Below are positions 56,282 to 62,536 of a stretch of 64,000 bases of DNA, piece by piece. This DNA is from a virus (taxonomy: Duplodnaviria; Caudoviricetes), in IMG/VR virus record IMGVR_UViG_2904541872_000002, positions 1,693 through 65,692 of that record. One strand, 5' to 3'. The notes under the pieces are model-generated. The model was not told the DNA's origin and did not search any database. It worked only from the letters and a program-made list of their open reading frames with translations. The translations under genes were made by a program, and so were the position numbers. The first letter of the stretch is position 1. Every line of letters begins with the position of its first letter.

Positions 56282-57397
56282 ATGTCCGATCTTTCCACCA
56301 CCCCGACCGGCGGCGAAGTCGCCGCCAAGCCGACCACCATCGCTGCGGCGGCTCTCGCGCTCTTCGCTCCGCTGGAAGCCGAGGTCAACACCCTCGCGGA
56401 GCGCTACCGCAACGTCGCCTTCGACATGAGCACGCCGAAAGGCTTCAAGGCCGCCAAGGACGTGCGCCTGGAGCTGCGCGAATCGGGCCGCTTCGCGCTG
56501 CAGCGCCTGCGCGACAAGACCAAGGACCAACTCAACGACTGCAAGAAGGTCGTCGACGCCGAGGCCGCGCGCCTGATCGAGATCGTGCGGCCCGTCGAGA
56601 CTGCTGTCGACGAGCAGATCACGGTGCACGAGAACAAGCTGGCCGCCGAGAAGGCGGAGCGCGATCGCATCGAGGCCGAGCGCCGGCAGAAGCACCTGGA
56701 TGCGATCGCCAAGATCGAGAGCTACGTCGCAATGGCCGACGGCCTGCCGGTCGAGCGCATCGAAGCGGGCCTGGCCTACGTGCGCGAGATCGATGTGAGC
56801 GCGGCGGTCTTCGAGGACTTCGCGGTCCGGGCCTCGGCGCAGAAGGACGCCACCATCCGCGCGCTCGAGAAGATGATCGCCGACGTGCGCCAAGCGGCCG
56901 CGGCCGAGGCGCTGCGCATCGAGAACGAGCGCCTGCAGGCCGAGCTCGCCGCGATGCGGAGCCAGCAGGCAGCACCAGCACCGGCGCCGGCAGAGCCAGC
57001 TGCGGCGCCCGTTGCTGAGGCGCCGCCCGCAGCGCGCGCCGCGGAGGCGCACGTCGCATCGCACCGCCCCGCGACGTCGGCCTACGGTGGCGGCCGCAGC
57101 ACCTCGCCCGCGGCGCCCGCGCCCGCCTCCGCGCCGCCGGCGGCGATCGATACCGGCGCCGCAGCGGCCAATGAACCGAGCGTCGGCGCCAAGCCTACGC
57201 TGCGCATCGGCGAGATTTCGGAACGCCTGGGCCACCCACTCACGGCGCAGCGCCTGCGCGACTGGGGCATCGAGCCCGCCACGCGCGAAGGGGCCGCCAC
57301 GCTCTACCACGAGCACCAGTTCGCGCTCATCTGCGACGCCGTCGCACGCAACGCCATGCAGGCCAAGGCCGCGCACGCGCAGCGCCTCGCCGCCTGA
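56282..57397 (+). CDS. Coiled-coil early protein
   Basis: ATG 56282; long heptad region DAEAARLIE...AAEKAERDR, Ala/Pro linker, small C-domain. Confidence 0.7.
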   Translation: MSDLSTTPTGGEVAAKPTTIAAAALALFAPLEAEVNTLAERYRNVAFDMSTPKGFKAAKDVRLELRESGRFALQRLRDKTKDQLNDCKKVVDAEAARLIEIVRPVETAVDEQITVHENKLAAEKAERDRIEAERRQKHLDAIAKIESYVAMADGLPVERIEAGLAYVREIDVSAAVFEDFAVRASAQKDATIRALEKMIADVRQAAAAEALRIENERLQAELAAMRSQQAAPAPAPAEPAAAPVAEAPPAARAAEAHVASHRPATSAYGGGRSTSPAAPAPASAPPAAIDTGAAAANEPSVGAKPTLRIGEISERLGHPLTAQRLRDWGIEPATREGAATLYHEHQFALICDAVARNAMQAKAAHAQRLAA

Positions 57398-57420
57398 TCC
57401 TCCAGCAGCAAGAGTCAACG

Positions 57421-57696
57421 ATGCCCATGTCCTTCCACAACGAGGCCGAGCGCCTCGACATTCCCCTCATGCCCGTGAAGTCCGCTCAGGTGGCGGCCGT
57501 GGGCTATGACCCGATCACGAAGACGCTGGCCGTGACCTTCACGCGCGGCGCCGGCACGGTCTACCAGTACCCCGACATCACCGCCGCGACCCACGCAGCT
57601 TTGCTGGCGGCCGAGTCCATCGGCAAGTACTTCGAGCAGCACATCCGGCCCCAACCCTTCAAGAAGTTCGTGACGGCCCCGGCCGGCGCGCGCTGA
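57421..57696 (+). CDS. KTSC-domain protein
   Basis: MPVKSAQVAAVGYDP...LAVTF...YQYPDI....AESIGKYF. Confidence 0.85.
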   Translation: MPMSFHNEAERLDIPLMPVKSAQVAAVGYDPITKTLAVTFTRGAGTVYQYPDITAATHAALLAAESIGKYFEQHIRPQPFKKFVTAPAGAR

Positions 57697-57814
57697 CCAG
57701 TTCCGGGCGACCCGTTGGTCGGAGTCTTTCCCTCCTCCCTCCCTCCTCCATTGCCGACCAACCCGCGCGAGCGGCGCCCGCTTTTTACTCCCCTCAACCA
57801 CCAGAAAGGTGACC

Positions 57815-58189
57815 ATGCCTGACGTATTGAAGTCCCCAACGCCGCAGGCCAAGCGGCAGAGCTTCTCGGAGTTCCTCCAGTCGCTCGACTACGGCGCCAT
57901 CGACGACGAGGCGACGCACGAACTCAACGAGATCGTGCATGCCTGCACGGAGACCGGCAAGACCGGCGAGATCTCGCTGACGATCAAGATCAAGCCCATC
58001 GGTACGGCCGGCCAGGTCGAGCTCGACAGCGCCCTCAAGGTGAAGAAGCCGAAGCCCGTTCGCGGCAAGACGCTGATGTTCGCCACCCCCGACAACAACC
58101 TGCAGCGCGAAGACCCGCGCCAGCGCTCGCTCGACGGCGTGCGCACCGTGGCGGAAGAGGCCCGCGGCCAAGTCCGCGCTGTGTCCTGA
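57815..58189 (+). CDS. Partner protein upstream of DUF2303 gene
   Basis: TGKTGEISLTIKIKP, FATPDNNLQREDPRQ. Confidence 0.7.
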   Translation: MPDVLKSPTPQAKRQSFSEFLQSLDYGAIDDEATHELNEIVHACTETGKTGEISLTIKIKPIGTAGQVELDSALKVKKPKPVRGKTLMFATPDNNLQREDPRQRSLDGVRTVAEEARGQVRAVS

Positions 58190-58239
58190 GACCGCCCTTC
58201 CACCCGCTCCTCCATCACAACTTTTTCAACGAGTACTCA

Positions 58240-59082
58240 ATGAGCAACGACAACACCGCCTGCAACGTGCAGGCCGCAATCAACGCCGGCGCCGGCCTGG
58301 CTGGCGTCCAGATCCTGGACCTCGCCAAGGCGACCCCGGGCAACCTCCCCTTCGTCGTGCTGCCCGAGGGCTACCGCACCGAGAGCCTCGAGTCGATCCT
58401 GGCTTCGCCCTTGCGCAAGAAGGGCAACACGACGTTGAACGACGCGGTCAGCTTCATCGCAGTCGTCAACGACCAGAAGGGCGACACCACGCGCCTCTAC
58501 TCGACCATCAACCCGCCGACCTTCACCGCCGTGTTCAATGACCACGCCGGCGTGGCCGGGGGCGGCTGGCGCGCGGGCTGGCGCGATCACCGGGCCGTCT
58601 ACAACGCGCCACTGTCTCCCGAGTGGAAGACGTGGGTTGGCGCGAGCGGCCGCCACCAGACTCAAGCCGACTTCGCGCAGTTCATCGAGACCAATCTGCC
58701 GCACATCGCCGAGCCCGTCGGTGCCGTGGTGCTCGAGGTGGCCCGCACCCTCGAGGCGAAGAAGAAGGTGAACTTCGCGTCGAGCTTGCGCCTCTCGGAC
58801 GGTTCCACCCAGTTCACCTACGAAGAAGACGTGCAGGGCTCGGCGCAGAAGGGGCAGCTGCAGGTGCCCGAGGTGTTCGTGCTCGCGATCCCCGTATTCG
58901 AGAACGGCGAGCTGTGGAAGCTAGAGGCCCAGCTGCGCTACCGCATCGCCGACGGCGGCAAGCTGACCATCTGGTACGAGCTGCTGCGCCCGCACAAGGT
59001 CATCGAGGCCGCAGTCGACGACCTCCGCACCACCATCGCCGAGAAGACGGAGCTGCCCATCCTGGTCGGCTCCCTCAACTGA
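58240..59082 (+). CDS. DUF2303 family protein
   Basis: AVFNDH, WRDHRAVY, QADFAQFIE, IPVFENG, LRYRI. Confidence 0.85.
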   Translation: MSNDNTACNVQAAINAGAGLAGVQILDLAKATPGNLPFVVLPEGYRTESLESILASPLRKKGNTTLNDAVSFIAVVNDQKGDTTRLYSTINPPTFTAVFNDHAGVAGGGWRAGWRDHRAVYNAPLSPEWKTWVGASGRHQTQADFAQFIETNLPHIAEPVGAVVLEVARTLEAKKKVNFASSLRLSDGSTQFTYEEDVQGSAQKGQLQVPEVFVLAIPVFENGELWKLEAQLRYRIADGGKLTIWYELLRPHKVIEAAVDDLRTTIAEKTELPILVGSLN

Positions 59083-59138
59083 TCGCCCCCTTTAGCCCGC
59101 CCGCGCCGCAGGGCGCGGGCACCGACGAGCGAGACGAC

Positions 59139-59663
59139 ATGAGCGAGAACACCAAGATCGAGATCCCGGCCACGACGTTGGCCTACCTCGCCGGAATGAT
59201 CGATGGCGACGGCTACATCAGCATCACGCGCTCGGTGCGGGCCGGCAAAGAGTACTTCGGCGCCCAGGTCGGCATCGCAGGCACTCGACGCGAGCCGCAC
59301 GACCTGGCCGCTTCCCTCTGGGGCGGCGTCGTGTCGCGCTACGAACCGGCGAATCCGAACCACCGCGCGCAGTTTCAATGGTCGCGTGTGGGCAAGGTCG
59401 CAGCGATGGTCATCGACGCGATCTACCCCTACCTGCTGATCAAGAAAGAGCACGCCGAACTCGCGCTTGCGTTGCACGAGTATGTGCGCGAGGCACGCGC
59501 CGAGGATCCGTTCCCCTGGTTCGCGCCAGACTACGACCCTCTCGTTCACATGCGAGCCATGCGCGACGAAATGATCGCGCTCAACCAATCGCGCAATCGC
59601 GTCGGCAAGAAGGCCGCCGGCCGCCTGCTGGACGGCCGCACCTGGGACGAGGTGCCCGCGTGA
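59139..59663 (+). CDS. Single-motif LAGLIDADG endonuclease flanked by DUF5131 (Gp37/Gp68) N- and C-terminal peptides
   Basis: MSENTKIE start, LAYLAGMIDGDGYISI, YPYLLIKKEHA, end RVGKKAAGRLLDGRTWDEVP. Confidence 0.8.
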   Translation: MSENTKIEIPATTLAYLAGMIDGDGYISITRSVRAGKEYFGAQVGIAGTRREPHDLAASLWGGVVSRYEPANPNHRAQFQWSRVGKVAAMVIDAIYPYLLIKKEHAELALALHEYVREARAEDPFPWFAPDYDPLVHMRAMRDEMIALNQSRNRVGKKAAGRLLDGRTWDEVPA

Positions 59664-59665
59664 CG

Positions 59666-59914
59666 CTACGGGGAGGGTGCCCTATACCTGCGACGCAGTT
59701 CCTGAACCGCTGGAGCAATCGCCACATGGGCGCGCTGTGCCAGTTCGGCGGGACCGTTCCAAATCGAAAGATCCCAGTTGCAGCCCTCTCTGTCGGGCTT
59801 GTGCCAGTAAGGGTGCTGTGGCGTGACGTCGTCGAACTCCGGGTGCTTGCGAAGCTCGTCGATCACGAGCGTGCGGATCTCATCCAGCGACTTGATGACA
59901 GCTCCGGTGACCAT
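59666..59914 (-). CDS. Small antisense cargo protein (82 aa)
   Basis: ATG 59914 after AGGAG; EGCNWDL, AVQELRRRY. Confidence 0.6.
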   Translation of the reverse strand: MVTGAVIKSLDEIRTLVIDELRKHPEFDDVTPQHPYWHKPDREGCNWDLSIWNGPAELAQRAHVAIAPAVQELRRRYRAPSP

Positions 59915-60051
59915 CGTTGTCTCCTGGTTCTCAGTTTGGGGAGCGCCAGTATGAACGAACGCCGGAAACCGCAGCCCCGTTGCCCGACCTTTGCGTGTGA
60001 GTCTGTACAGGCGAATGCAGTCCACGCATCGCAGGGAAAGGATAAGGCGCC

Positions 60052-60498
60052 GTGAACTACGAACTCCGCATGAAGATGCAGGAATACGAGCGCGGCCGCA
60101 TCACATGGTCCGAGCTGGGCGAGTGGCTGGACGCGCGGATCATGTTCACGCCGCGGCTGCCGGCGGACGTGACCGTCTTCAACCCCCACAACCCGGCCAT
60201 CCAGCTGCTGCCCGAGGGCACCCGCATCGCCGTCTACCGGCGCGTGCCCGACGCCGTCGAACACGGCGACGACCCCGAACTGCGCCTGTCGCCGCGCGAG
60301 GTGAACGACGAGCAGCCGACCACCGTCGCACAGCGGTTCGTGAACCGGAACCACCAGCGGCCGCCGGTGGCGTGGATGCACTTCGCCGACCCCGAGCGCT
60401 GCATCAGCGTCGCGGTCAAGAGCCTGGGCCAGCGCGCCGGCGGCATGTCGGCGCGCTGGGTCGGCGCCTACACCCTGCCACTCGTGAGGAGCGAATGA
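60052..60498 (+). CDS. Early hypothetical protein
   Basis: 148 aa, high-GC phage codon usage. Confidence 0.6.
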   Translation: MNYELRMKMQEYERGRITWSELGEWLDARIMFTPRLPADVTVFNPHNPAIQLLPEGTRIAVYRRVPDAVEHGDDPELRLSPREVNDEQPTTVAQRFVNRNHQRPPVAWMHFADPERCISVAVKSLGQRAGGMSARWVGAYTLPLVRSE

Positions 60499-60500
60499 CG

Positions 60501-60743
60501 TCAGTCCTCTTCGAGGTCGAATTCTTCCTGGGCCTGGCGGATCACGCGCGCCACGCTGGTGCTGTGTTGGTCGCGATCCCTCAAGACTGGGACGGTCCAG
60601 GTTGGCCCACCCGGGCCGCCGTCGCACCAGCGAACGCCACCCAGGTGCACGTCCGTTTCCAAGCCATCGAACCCAGGCAGCGCCTCTATGCGCTCGATCA
60701 GGATCTGGCGCAGCTGTCGCGCCGTGCGGGTGGGTTTTGCCAT
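60501..60743 (-). CDS. Small antisense cargo protein (80 aa)
   Basis: MAKPTRTARQLRQILIERI...GPTW...VIRQAQEEFDL. Confidence 0.55.
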   Translation of the reverse strand: MAKPTRTARQLRQILIERIEALPGFDGLETDVHLGGVRWCDGGPGGPTWTVPVLRDRDQHSTSVARVIRQAQEEFDLEED

Positions 60744-60777: not shown

Positions 60778-61008
60778 ATGTCCATCGTCCTGACTGAAGA
60801 CGAGCTGCAGGCGATCACTGGCTACAAGGTATCCACCATGCAGCTCGCGGTACTGCACAGGCGCGGCTTCTACCGCGCATTCATGGGCCGCAAGGGCGTC
60901 GTGCTCGAGCGCAGCCACTACGAGTCCGTGACCCGCGGCGAATCCACCTCGCCGACCGGCGGCGTCAAGAAATCGATCAACCTTTCCCACCTGAAACTCG
61001 CACAATGA
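60778..61008 (+). CDS. Excisionase-like protein (DUF4224 type)
   Basis: LTEDELQAITGYK...QLAVLHRRG; GGAG RBS; ATGA overlap with integrase. Confidence 0.75.
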   Translation: MSIVLTEDELQAITGYKVSTMQLAVLHRRGFYRAFMGRKGVVLERSHYESVTRGESTSPTGGVKKSINLSHLKLAQ

Positions 61009-62102
61009 TTCGCCCACGAGCCACCCCGGACGGCCTGCCGTTCCGGGTCTATGAGAGGTACGGCAAGAAGGTCTACAGCATCGGCTACAAGATGAAGTCC
61101 GGCCGCTGGGCGTTCAAGCTGCGGTGCCAGGTCGACGATGCCAACCAGGTGCGCAAGCTCCGCCGCCAAGCCATCGAGGACTCGGCGCGCATCATGGACG
61201 ACGTGCCCGAAGGCGGCTTCAGCGGCTTAGTGAATGCCTGGTTCGCATGGCAAGAGGGACTGCCCGACACGTCCGCGGAGAAGCGCGCGGAATCGACGCG
61301 CACCGAGAACCGCCGCGAAGCCGACATGCTGCTCAAGTCCTTCGGGCACCTCGAGGTCGGCGAGATCACCCGATCGATGGGCTACCAGTACCTCGAGGCC
61401 CATCAAGAAGCCGGCCGGCCCGAGAAATCGAACAAGGAAATCGCGCTCGCGCGCCTCATCCTCGAGTACGCCATCCGCAAGGGCATGATCGAGACGAACC
61501 CTTTCGACAAGCTCACCAAGAACAAGCGGGTGAAGGAAGCGAAGCGCTATGTCACCCACGACGAGCTCGAAATCGTCGTAGCCACCGGCCGGGAGCTCGG
61601 CGGCCCGTATCACATCATCGCCCTGGCACTGAAAACCGCATGGCTCTGCGTGCGTCGGTCGTTCGAAGTCCGCAAGGTCACCATCGACGCGATCACGGAC
61701 GACGGCATCCTCTGGACCGACTCCAAGGATCCGACGAAGCCGAGGATCCTGATCGAGTGGTCCCCCGAGCTGAAGGAAACCGTCGAGGAGGCCCGCGCGA
61801 TCAAGCGCAACAAGCTGGCCGGCTCGTTCCTGCTGTTCGGCAACCTGCAGGGCCAGCGCTACACGAAGTCGGGTTGGGGAAAGCTACTGGGCACGCTCAT
61901 GGCCACGGCCGAGGAGCACGCGCGTGCGCTGGATCTCGAGTTCGAGCACTTCTCGCTGCAGGATTGCCGGCCGAAGGGGGTGAGCGACAAGCTCGAGGCT
62001 GGCCACACGGACACGCAGGAGGCCACGCTGCACACCGACGGGAAGATGATCGCTCGGGTCTACGACCGTCGGCAGCTCAAGAAAGCGACCCCAGCGGGGT
62101 AG
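61005..62102 (+). CDS. Tyrosine integrase
   Basis: 365 aa; core-binding NKEIALARLI, catalytic CVRRSFEVR, QDCR, LH, VYDR; adjacent to tRNA-Asp. Confidence 0.9.
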   Translation: MIRPRATPDGLPFRVYERYGKKVYSIGYKMKSGRWAFKLRCQVDDANQVRKLRRQAIEDSARIMDDVPEGGFSGLVNAWFAWQEGLPDTSAEKRAESTRTENRREADMLLKSFGHLEVGEITRSMGYQYLEAHQEAGRPEKSNKEIALARLILEYAIRKGMIETNPFDKLTKNKRVKEAKRYVTHDELEIVVATGRELGGPYHIIALALKTAWLCVRRSFEVRKVTIDAITDDGILWTDSKDPTKPRILIEWSPELKETVEEARAIKRNKLAGSFLLFGNLQGQRYTKSGWGKLLGTLMATAEEHARALDLEFEHFSLQDCRPKGVSDKLEAGHTDTQEATLHTDGKMIARVYDRRQLKKATPAG

Positions 62103-62143
62103 CTCATATTCCAAAGTGCCTCGAAACGAATTCCAAAAAGACA

Positions 62144-62175
62144 AACGGGCTACGTGATTTCTCACGTAACCCGTT
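62144..62175. terminator. Inverted repeat just downstream of tRNA-Asp (att-associated terminator)
   Basis: AACGGGCTACGTGA / TCACGTAACCCGTT, 13 of 14 matched; ATTCCAAA direct repeats at 62108 and 62130 may be arm sites. Confidence 0.6.
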
Positions 62176-62183
62176 GTTTTATA

Positions 62184-62260
62184 TGGCGGAGTGGACGGGA
62201 CTCGAACCCGCGACCCCCGGCGTGACAGGCCGGTATTCTAACCAACTGAACTACCACTCC
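62184..62260 (-). tRNA. tRNA-Asp(GTC), integration target
   Basis: 77-nt canonical cloverleaf GGAGTGGTAG...CTGTCAC...TTCGAG...CCGCCA. Confidence 0.97.
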
Positions 62261-62329
62261 TGGTAGACAACGTTCACTCCTTGCGGAGTCGAGTGTTGAC
62301 GACTCGTGCCTGCTTCACTTGCATGAAAC

Positions 62330-62405
62330 TGGCGACCCTACGGGGATTCGAACCCCGGTAGCCACCGTGAAAGGGTGGTGTCCTAGGCCTCTAGACGATA
62401 GGGTC
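62330..62405 (-). tRNA. tRNA-Glu(TTC)
   Basis: 76-nt cloverleaf, CCACC-CTTTCAC-GGTGG, CCA end. Confidence 0.97.
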
Positions 62406-62460
62406 AAAACCTTAGGAACCGTGCTGCGATCAGCACTTCTTCTCTTCTCGACACTTTTGA

Positions 62461-62536
<76 letters not shown>

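Follow-up and report, generated by a model that had tools for sequence, protein, structure and literature searches.

How does a gene come to begin and end as one protein while encoding another in between? This question is raised by a chimeric open reading frame (ORF) in a provirus of the Caudoviricetes, found in a 64,000-nucleotide stretch of DNA (positions 1,693 to 65,692 of IMG/VR record IMGVR_UViG_2904541872_000002; hereafter the window). An earlier note on this DNA had described the ORF as a homing endonuclease carrying the two ends of a DUF5131 (Gp37/Gp68) gene, and had proposed that it homes by replacing intact copies of that gene. The best explanation overall, which we consider probable, is that the endonuclease belongs to a family of DUF5131-specific mobile cassettes, and that the window copy is a derivative which has lost the core of its host gene. 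The parts of the ORF are as follows.

59139..59663, plus strand: chimeric ORF encoding protein P0001 (174 amino acids, aa), consisting of DUF5131 head, LAGLIDADG endonuclease, DUF5131 tail and stop codon.
59139..59162, plus strand: head MSENTKIE, codons 1-8 of the resident DUF5131 gene, including the start codon and preceded by the translation signals of that gene, assigned by match to related proviruses L177 and L181.
59163..59597, plus strand: endonuclease domain (residues 9-153), single-motif LAGLIDADG of the I-CreI type, with no counterpart in L177.
59178..59216, plus strand: LAGLIDADG motif LAYLAGMIDGDGY (residues 14-26), assigned from aligned relatives.
59598..59663, plus strand: tail RVGKKAAGRLLDGRTWDEVPA, the last 21 DUF5131 codons and stop, assigned from Pfam, the intact DUF5131 protein P0122 and L177.

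Both ends of the ORF match DUF5131, as the earlier note had stated. The head agrees with the start of the intact DUF5131 gene of L177 in 8/8 aa and 23/24 nucleotides (nt), with L181 in 24/24 nt, and with the 335-aa protein P0122 (which starts MSTNTKIE) in 7/8 aa. The tail is identical to the C-terminal end of P0122 (21/21 aa), matches the L177 tail in 54/57 nt, and at the DNA level shows 82-89% agreement with Gp37/Gp68 genes from phages of Gordonia and Mycobacterium. On the Pfam DUF5131 profile it occupies positions 222-243 of 243 (E 0.005), and its 16.7 bits lie below the 28.9-bit Pfam cut-off, as it is a mere fragment. The chimeric ORF is not itself a member of DUF5131 (PF07505, Gp37/Gp68), since it stays below the gathering score and lacks the N-terminal Cys motif, and no further DUF5131 match was found anywhere in the whole 65.7-kb provirus record. 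The termini are genuine leftovers of a DUF5131 gene that stood at this, its native, locus. The chimera is read from the DUF5131 start region to the DUF5131 stop, which agrees with the proposal that the retained termini serve as expression signals.

Related proviruses were located using the DUF2303 gene upstream of the ORF as an anchor, and L177 proved to be the closest. Three features of the surroundings enter into this comparison.

58240..59082, plus strand: DUF2303 gene, upstream neighbour and synteny anchor.
59099..59120, plus strand: 9-bp GC hairpin in the DUF2303-DUF5131 intergenic spacer, present in L177 too.
59657..60052, strand not assigned: downstream segment without homology to L177.

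The window and L177 share about 90% nt identity, unbroken from 57385 to 59161, that is, across the spacer and into the ORF as far as its 23rd nt. After 59161 the window has 438 bp where L177 has a 1020-bp DUF5131 core, and there is no homology between the two. Homology returns at 59600-59656 (57 bp, 94.7%), is lost again after the tail, and resumes at 60053, L177 carrying about 2.4 kb of other genes in this interval. As downstream homology resumes only there, the right-hand homology beside the endonuclease consists of the 57-bp tail only. The L177 gene at the same place encodes a complete 368-aa DUF5131 protein (Pfam positions 1-243, E 1e-84) that begins MSENTKIEW; alignment to an allele of the same locus, which the earlier note had proposed as a check, thus finds an intact gene with which homology breaks after codon 8 and is regained over the tail. 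Relative to this sister provirus, the window copy lacks DUF5131 codons 9 to about 347, and it also lacks any substitute tail of the kind described below.

What lies between the two termini is a LAGLIDADG endonuclease. Residues 12-138 match phrog_5046 (E 2e-26), with a weak match of the domain to Pfam LAGLIDADG_3. An AlphaFold2 model built from an alignment of 22 relatives has a mean predicted local distance difference test score (pLDDT) of 84.5, exceeding 90 for most of residues 10-150; confidence is low for head and tail (tail pLDDT about 50), and the tail is probably a floppy appendage. The best Foldseek matches of the model in the PDB are I-CreI, I-MsoI and I-CvuI (probability 1.00, template modelling (TM) score 0.6-0.7), and a profile search of PDB sequences returned the same three enzymes with E-values of 1e-6 to 1e-5. 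The modelled helices (residues 11-24, 52-61 and 86-98) and strands (25-34, 37-48, 65-68 and 78-84) are arranged in the alpha-beta-beta-alpha-beta-beta-alpha order of the core. The protein has one LAGLIDADG motif only, with a conserved acidic residue at its end; D22, D24 and G25 are invariant among the 22 aligned relatives, and so is K102. From the hidden Markov model (HMM) alignment and the I-CreI numbering, we take D24 to correspond to I-CreI D20 and K102 to I-CreI K98. Enzymes of the I-CreI type are homodimers of single-motif subunits and cut a roughly 22-bp pseudo-palindromic site. The ORF encodes an intact I-CreI-type LAGLIDADG homing endonuclease, which is probably active and, by homology, probably works as a homodimer. 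The claim that the DUF5131 core had been replaced in frame by a LAGLIDADG domain is confirmed by the phrog_5046 match, the I-CreI-like model and the absence of the Cys-motif core.

The usual form of this element becomes apparent from its relatives. A search among proteins of similar length returned 204 relatives (E ≤ 1e-3), most of them 165-175 aa in length and 56-86% identical; an exhaustive search added more distant single- and double-motif LAGLIDADG proteins, with no long fusion among them. The family is found in Alpha-, Beta- and Gammaproteobacteria and in Actinobacteria. In species-representative genomes, a scan with the single protein gave mainly tail-only matches to ordinary DUF5131 genes and a scan with the alignment gave four clear family members; a metagenome scan yielded eight family loci. 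A full DUF5131-type tail (LDGxx[W/H]xxxP) is present in at least 89/119 family proteins, and about 16/121 end directly after NQSRNR with no tail. A DUF5131 head is absent from 91/119, which start M-x(4-7)-TLAYLAG and are here called headless.

In every headless, tail-bearing locus with available upstream sequence, a DUF5131 gene lies immediately upstream. We refer to these loci (L124, which equals L235, and L125, L127, L128, L129, L228, L231 and L232/L233) as canonical; the same layout occurs in the cultured Mycobacterium phages Estave1 (gp68/gp69) and Karhdo (gp62/gp63). In canonical loci the DUF5131 stop overlaps the endonuclease ATG, and the endonuclease is always in the +1 frame. The upstream DUF5131 proteins reach only to Pfam positions 217-221 of 243 and close with a substitute C-terminus (the B tail, ...RDKRGxLEDLPxDLRVREFPN and stop), while the missing positions 222-243 form the end of the endonuclease ORF, which runs on into the displaced native tail and terminates at the stop of the host gene. 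Two loci have neither an upstream DUF5131 gene nor a head: L126, which keeps the tail, and L130, which is tail-less and has an endonuclease frame that is open far upstream.

Comparison of alleles with and without the endonuclease delimits the cassette. Between L124 and gp37 of Burkholderia phage phiE125, the DUF5131 cores share 74% DNA identity up to KQ(M/W)GGE; a 148-bp linker is then replaced by 515 bp (B tail plus endonuclease), and homology returns in the tail. In Estave1, 545 bp stand where gp66 of phage TChen has 154 bp, in the interval from KQ to AGRELDG. With the window and L177, these make three pairs in which one gene at one locus occurs both with and without the endonuclease, the breakpoints being sharp. 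As read from the L124 and Estave1 alignments, the cassette is shown to replace the variable linker that joins the conserved KQWG motif to the C-terminal tail, and the DUF5131 gene is kept. The earlier idea of a homing endonuclease tied to DUF5131 is right in that the family is DUF5131-specific, but gene replacement is not the usual mode of the family, in which the gene is generally kept and only 28/119 proteins carry a head.

Endings were also compared outside the canonical loci. An ordinary (A) tail ends 84/84 endonuclease-free DUF5131 genes with readable ends. A B-type ending without an endonuclease occurs in gp49 of Ochrobactrum phage POI1126, and endings of the form RDKRG...DLRIRE[FV]P are found in at least 120 protein clusters. 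Eight B-tailed clusters may be partners of headless endonucleases (e.g. P0290 with P0002, and P0307 with P0018), a pairing for which the evidence, an equal length of the longest contig, is weak. P0290, the presumed DUF5131 partner of P0002, the closest headless relative of the window protein, is only 45% identical to the L177 protein.

Several lines of evidence fit an element that moves. In the endonuclease domain, the ratio of nonsynonymous to synonymous substitution rates (dN/dS) is 0.07-0.23 in 9/9 computable pairs among nine relatives; in the tail of the same relatives, the corresponding ratio of proportions (pN/pS) is about 0.5-1.4. The tail occurs in two types, W (RTWDEVP-like) and H (VEHNGFP-like), both of which are also found in endonuclease-free DUF5131 genes. 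The types require 19 changes on the endonuclease tree, which is poorly resolved, vs. about 27 when shuffled, and the close relatives P0001, P0004, P0005 and P0008 differ in the distal tail. Such switching fits crossovers within the conserved GKKAAGRLLDG during repeated entry into different resident alleles. The GC content at third codon positions is 82% in the endonuclease, vs. 93-94% in the flanking DUF2303 gene and the gene at 60052-60498, which is consistent with a comparatively recent arrival of the endonuclease. Taken together, selection, tail swapping, wide host range and third-position composition would fit an active homing element. A guess at the target site from palindromes in the KQWG or tail DNA was dropped as unreliable in GC-rich coding sequence.

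How, then, did the window copy come to lack the gene that its relatives keep? The head is carried by 28/119 family proteins in at least 10 junction types: eight head codons may be joined to ATT, PTT, VPATT or IPATT, and other fusions retain 12-14 codons, or 26 codons including the first Cys (P0120). Where the earlier note had suggested looking for identical junctions elsewhere, the C-terminal junction turns out to be common to the whole family, while the exact N-terminal junction of the window (KIE-IP-ATT) is seen in 1/121 proteins. Headed forms are scattered on the tree of the endonuclease domain, requiring 24-25 changes compared with a shuffled mean of 25.5-26.9; the well-supported branches alone force at least seven head changes, and no headed clade was seen on this tree. 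The nearest relatives of the window protein are the headless P0002, P0003 and P0008, together with P0007, which has a near-identical junction. We read the head-fused copies as recurrent secondary losses of the host-gene core, and not as a lineage that propagates by gene replacement. Like many others that arose independently, the window allele would be a derivative that has lost the DUF5131 core and B tail and has the host start fused in frame to the endonuclease. The refuting outcome named in the earlier note, a one-off deletion of an intein-bearing allele, would apply as far as deletion is concerned, but the parent allele would have borne a free-standing endonuclease gene and not an intein.

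The following history would account for the window copy. The prophage lineage would first have held an intact DUF5131 gene like that of L177. A cassette would have entered by double-strand-break repair with the tail as right-hand homology, and the core would have been lost either at entry, if the DUF5131 gene of the donor was too diverged to provide left-hand homology, or in a later deletion. A donor with a 45%-identical DUF5131 gene would be well matched on the right, by the tail, and poorly matched on the left, so that an illegitimate left junction could be favoured. Only in-frame fusions that keep the endonuclease translated would have been retained. Targets of the protein would be the endonuclease-free DUF5131 alleles that co-infecting relatives bring in, and the head and tail peptides would be passengers.

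A number of observations weigh against this history or limit its reach. The order of events is itself inferred, and no canonical intermediate (core, substitute tail and endonuclease) was found in the window's own lineage. Two junction codons of the window copy (Ile-Pro) are unaccounted for. The tree is weak (139 columns; 12/116 inner branches well supported, 56 drawn open), and the change counts derived from it are upper bounds. A register in which the head ends ...IE two residues before TLAYLAG recurs at at least five places on the tree; this could mean that head-fused alleles are spreading, or that the endonuclease N-terminus (M-I/V-E-P-T-T) derives from the DUF5131 head. Microhomology between the head and the endonuclease start is short, the longest common strings in eight canonical loci being only 4-6 nt. 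Finally, the proportion of synonymous differences (pS) is lower in the tail (0.26-0.59) than in the endonuclease domain (0.51-0.75), which hints at constraint at the DNA level or at recent exchange, two effects that are not separable here.

The N-terminus M-(x)-I/V-E-P/A-T-T of many headless endonucleases is similar to the DUF5131 head ...K-I-E-W-T-D; the resemblance may be chance, a source of microhomology, or the relic of an ancestral head. Microhomology as a driver of the core deletions is unsupported by strings of 4-6 nt, and only L233 has the best-matching, M-I-E-type start.

Among the alternatives, the one that survives best is the original proposal at face value. The head-endonuclease-tail allele would itself be mobile, cutting intact DUF5131 genes and replacing their core by gap repair through the head with its upstream flank and through the tail. 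The window does possess the required arms: on the left, 1.7 kb at 90% together with the head; on the right, the 57-bp tail at 94.7%. Its ORF is unbroken and evolves under purifying selection, similar junction registers are found in several clades, and P0001 (KIE-IP-ATT) and P0007 (KIE-VP-ATT) are near neighbours on the tree that may go back to a single event. Against this, headed forms are a minority made up mostly of singletons nested among headless proteins, at a number of changes no different from the shuffled level, and their junctions are of many types; both well-defined pairs of endonuclease-plus and endonuclease-minus alleles are linker replacements in which the gene is kept; and the exact window junction was not found in a second background in protein, genome or metagenome searches. 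We therefore regard this alternative as unlikely. A broader version, which we offer as a speculation with a small but real chance of being right, is that head-endonuclease-tail alleles are a working second lifestyle of the element: the endonuclease would cut intact DUF5131 genes, gap repair from a head-fused donor would erase the core, which belongs to the radical S-adenosylmethionine (SAM) class, and a gene-deleting drive among prophages would re-arise from the gene-sparing cassette each time the cores of donor and recipient had diverged too far for recombination.

A second alternative is that the protein has been domesticated, its basic tail (SRNRVGKKAAGR...) having been co-opted as a DNA-contacting C-terminal arm or for binding a DUF5131 partner, with the gene now serving the prophage. 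Retention of the tail in most members and its low synonymous divergence would speak for this, as would the I-CreI structure 2o7m, which according to its title concerns a C-terminal loop essential for DNA binding and cleavage. The tail is nevertheless far less constrained than the domain it follows, is missing altogether from the proteins that end after NQSRNR, is swapped between types among close endonuclease relatives, and is modelled with low confidence, and on balance domestication appears quite improbable.

The weakest alternative, that the ORF is a remnant of an intein- or intron-bearing DUF5131 allele whose splicing domain and extein core were lost in a one-off deletion, draws on the frequency of LAGLIDADG endonucleases in inteins and group I introns and on the endonuclease being in frame with both host-gene ends, but it has next to no credibility given that Pfam shows neither a Hint nor an intein domain at E ≤ 10, that both junctions lack a nucleophile (Ile directly follows the head, and the C-terminal junction is Asn|Arg), that none of the known intron families in Rfam matches at E ≤ 1 in window positions 58000-60600 or in eight canonical loci, and that canonical ORFs lie in different frames with overlapping stop and start. 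Among longer proteins, only an intact DUF5131 protein matched the tail, and no DUF5131-intein fusion was present among the best 150 matches of the exhaustive search, in which two-stretch matches were double-motif LAGLIDADG proteins of 268-423 aa. The Rfam scans gave chance matches only (sR28, E 0.17; veev_FSE, E 0.92), and the earlier statements that there are no intein splice residues and no intron structure both hold. Tandem DUF5131 paralogues, the second of which had been invaded, were rejected as an origin: 0/90 loci have two DUF5131 places within the flanks examined.

The hairpin just upstream of the ORF, which the earlier note had mentioned, is a real 9-bp GC stem at 59099-59120, but it is kept in the endonuclease-free L177 with one loop change and was on that account rejected as part of the endonuclease element; it belongs to the resident intergenic spacer. 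Its fold over 66 nt has a z-score of -1.4, with the region folding no better than 15/200 shuffles, and no T-run follows the hairpin, which is not a canonical terminator.

Other observations concern the wider neighbourhood of the ORF. The slot after DUF2303 (59083-60052 in the window) is a variable cargo site, which in the window and in L172, L174 and L177-L182 holds an intact DUF5131 gene, an ASCH-like gene (MKAISIRQPWAWLIV...), small unknown genes, or the endonuclease chimera. A minus-strand gene at 60501-60740 (about 79 aa, no Pfam match) retains 69-76% nt identity in L172, L174, L178, L179 and L180 despite differing genes between it and DUF2303. Further on, a tyrosine-integrase-like gene at 61005-62102 adjoins minus-strand tRNA-Asp (62184-62260), tRNA-Glu and tRNA-Ala genes, and the region 61005-62536 is probably the prophage end with its attachment site.

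DUF5131 genes elsewhere show further signs of rearrangement. About 40 DUF5131 clusters (P0308-P0378) have a near-identical 3' end (...FVKQMGGSRDKRGELFDLPDDLRIREVPHANS) with N-terminal parts and lengths that differ (247-461 aa), which looks like a recently spread 3' cassette. In most canonical pairs the last 80 DUF5131 residues are more alike than the first 150, and the same region is the most conserved of the family; as an indication of co-conversion of the 3' region this is uninformative, being confounded by that family-wide conservation. The DUF5131 gene gp66 of Mycobacterium phage SimranZ1 (L245 1001-1654) has lost an internal segment in frame, so that ...FISA is followed directly by RVGKKRTGRELDGRTWDQYPEANA. 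The deletion ends exactly at RVGKK, the boundary at which cassette and tail are joined in Estave1; it may be a scar left by repair after endonuclease cutting, and it shows the RVGKK boundary to be deletion-prone or near a break site. An annotated HNH endonuclease gene lies directly downstream of DUF5131 both in the endonuclease-plus Estave1 (gp70, L242 2516-2878) and in the endonuclease-minus TChen (gp67, L244 1912-2274); more than one selfish nuclease is present in these DUF5131 neighbourhoods.

These results have practical consequences. The proteins of about 170 aa should be annotated as LAGLIDADG enzymes, not as "HNH endonuclease" or "hypothetical", and their weak DUF5131 matches as captured host-gene tails. 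Cultured mycobacteriophages with (Estave1, Karhdo) and without (TChen) the endonuclease provide tractable material, alongside about 200 natural variants with swapped tails and many independent host-gene deletions. Meganuclease engineering might likewise draw on the several hundred I-CreI-type enzymes whose natural target region is conserved.

It remains to place the element among known systems. Our literature searches turned up no paper that connects DUF5131, Gp37Gp68 or PF07505 to homing endonucleases, and no description of a comparable gene-hybrid layout for phages. DUF5131 is listed as a subgroup of the radical-SAM superfamily (PMC9477430), and a term search of an actinobacteriophage intein survey (10.1101/2025.01.02.630785) gave no mention of DUF5131, Gp37 or Estave1. 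With I-CreI, I-MsoI and I-CvuI the endonuclease shares its fold, the single LAGLIDADG motif, a core of about 150 aa and the conserved acidic residue; unlike these enzymes, which are encoded in group I introns, it is only 16-24% identical to them, is associated with no intron, and bears host peptides at both ends. Like intein-encoded LAGLIDADG endonucleases, the window copy is in frame with host sequence on both sides, but there is no Hint domain, there are no splice-junction residues, and the host protein cannot be restored.

Among splice-free elements, T4 SegB (PMC2330249) and MobE (PMC2790892) are endonuclease genes without a splicing element that undergo intronless homing, being, according to the available text of these papers, inherited preferentially with flanking DNA by cutting an endonuclease-free relative. 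They are GIY-YIG or HNH enzymes encoded between genes, whereas the present family is LAGLIDADG, lies inside the 3' end of a gene and supplies a surrogate host C-terminus. The HNH insertion in the DNA methylase gene of mycobacteriophage ShiLan is likewise a splice-free homing element inside a phage protein-coding gene; as its accessible description has it (PMC11855218), the host frame there stays open with the HNH gene hidden in another frame, while in canonical DUF5131 loci the host frame is closed early, and in the window the host gene is gone.

The closest parallel is found in fungal mitochondria, where mobile ORFs (mORFs) form gene hybrids with atp6 in Allomyces macrogynus, atp6, atp9, cox2 and nad3 in Glomus sp., atp9 in Rhizopus oryzae, and cox2 in Mortierella verticillata (Beaudet et al. 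2013, PMC3630166). As far as the accessible portion of that paper describes them, mORFs are mostly LAGLIDADG and also GIY-YIG enzymes. In these hybrids and in canonical phage loci alike, the endonuclease ORF lies in the 3' part of the host gene, a foreign C-terminus closes the host frame, and the native C-terminus is duplicated downstream, near to that of uninvaded relatives; the mitochondrial endonuclease ORF is sometimes in phase with host sequence. The phage system differs in its hosts (phages and prophages of Proteobacteria and Actinobacteria), in its target, DUF5131, and in the layout of the endonuclease ORF, which overlaps with the host stop in a different frame and continues into the native tail. 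Canonical loci have the features of a mORF-type gene hybrid. The window copy does not, as it is without host core and substitute C-terminus, a state not described in the accessible portion of PMC3630166; on its sequence we file it as a derivative, and not a typical member, of this class. Canonical loci are a phage counterpart of the mitochondrial gene hybrids, to which the window adds a recurrent derivative marked by loss of the host gene, and a strategy so far described for fungal mitochondrial genes, a mobile endonuclease that brings a surrogate C-terminus, is seen to operate in phages of Proteobacteria and Actinobacteria on one specific accessory gene.

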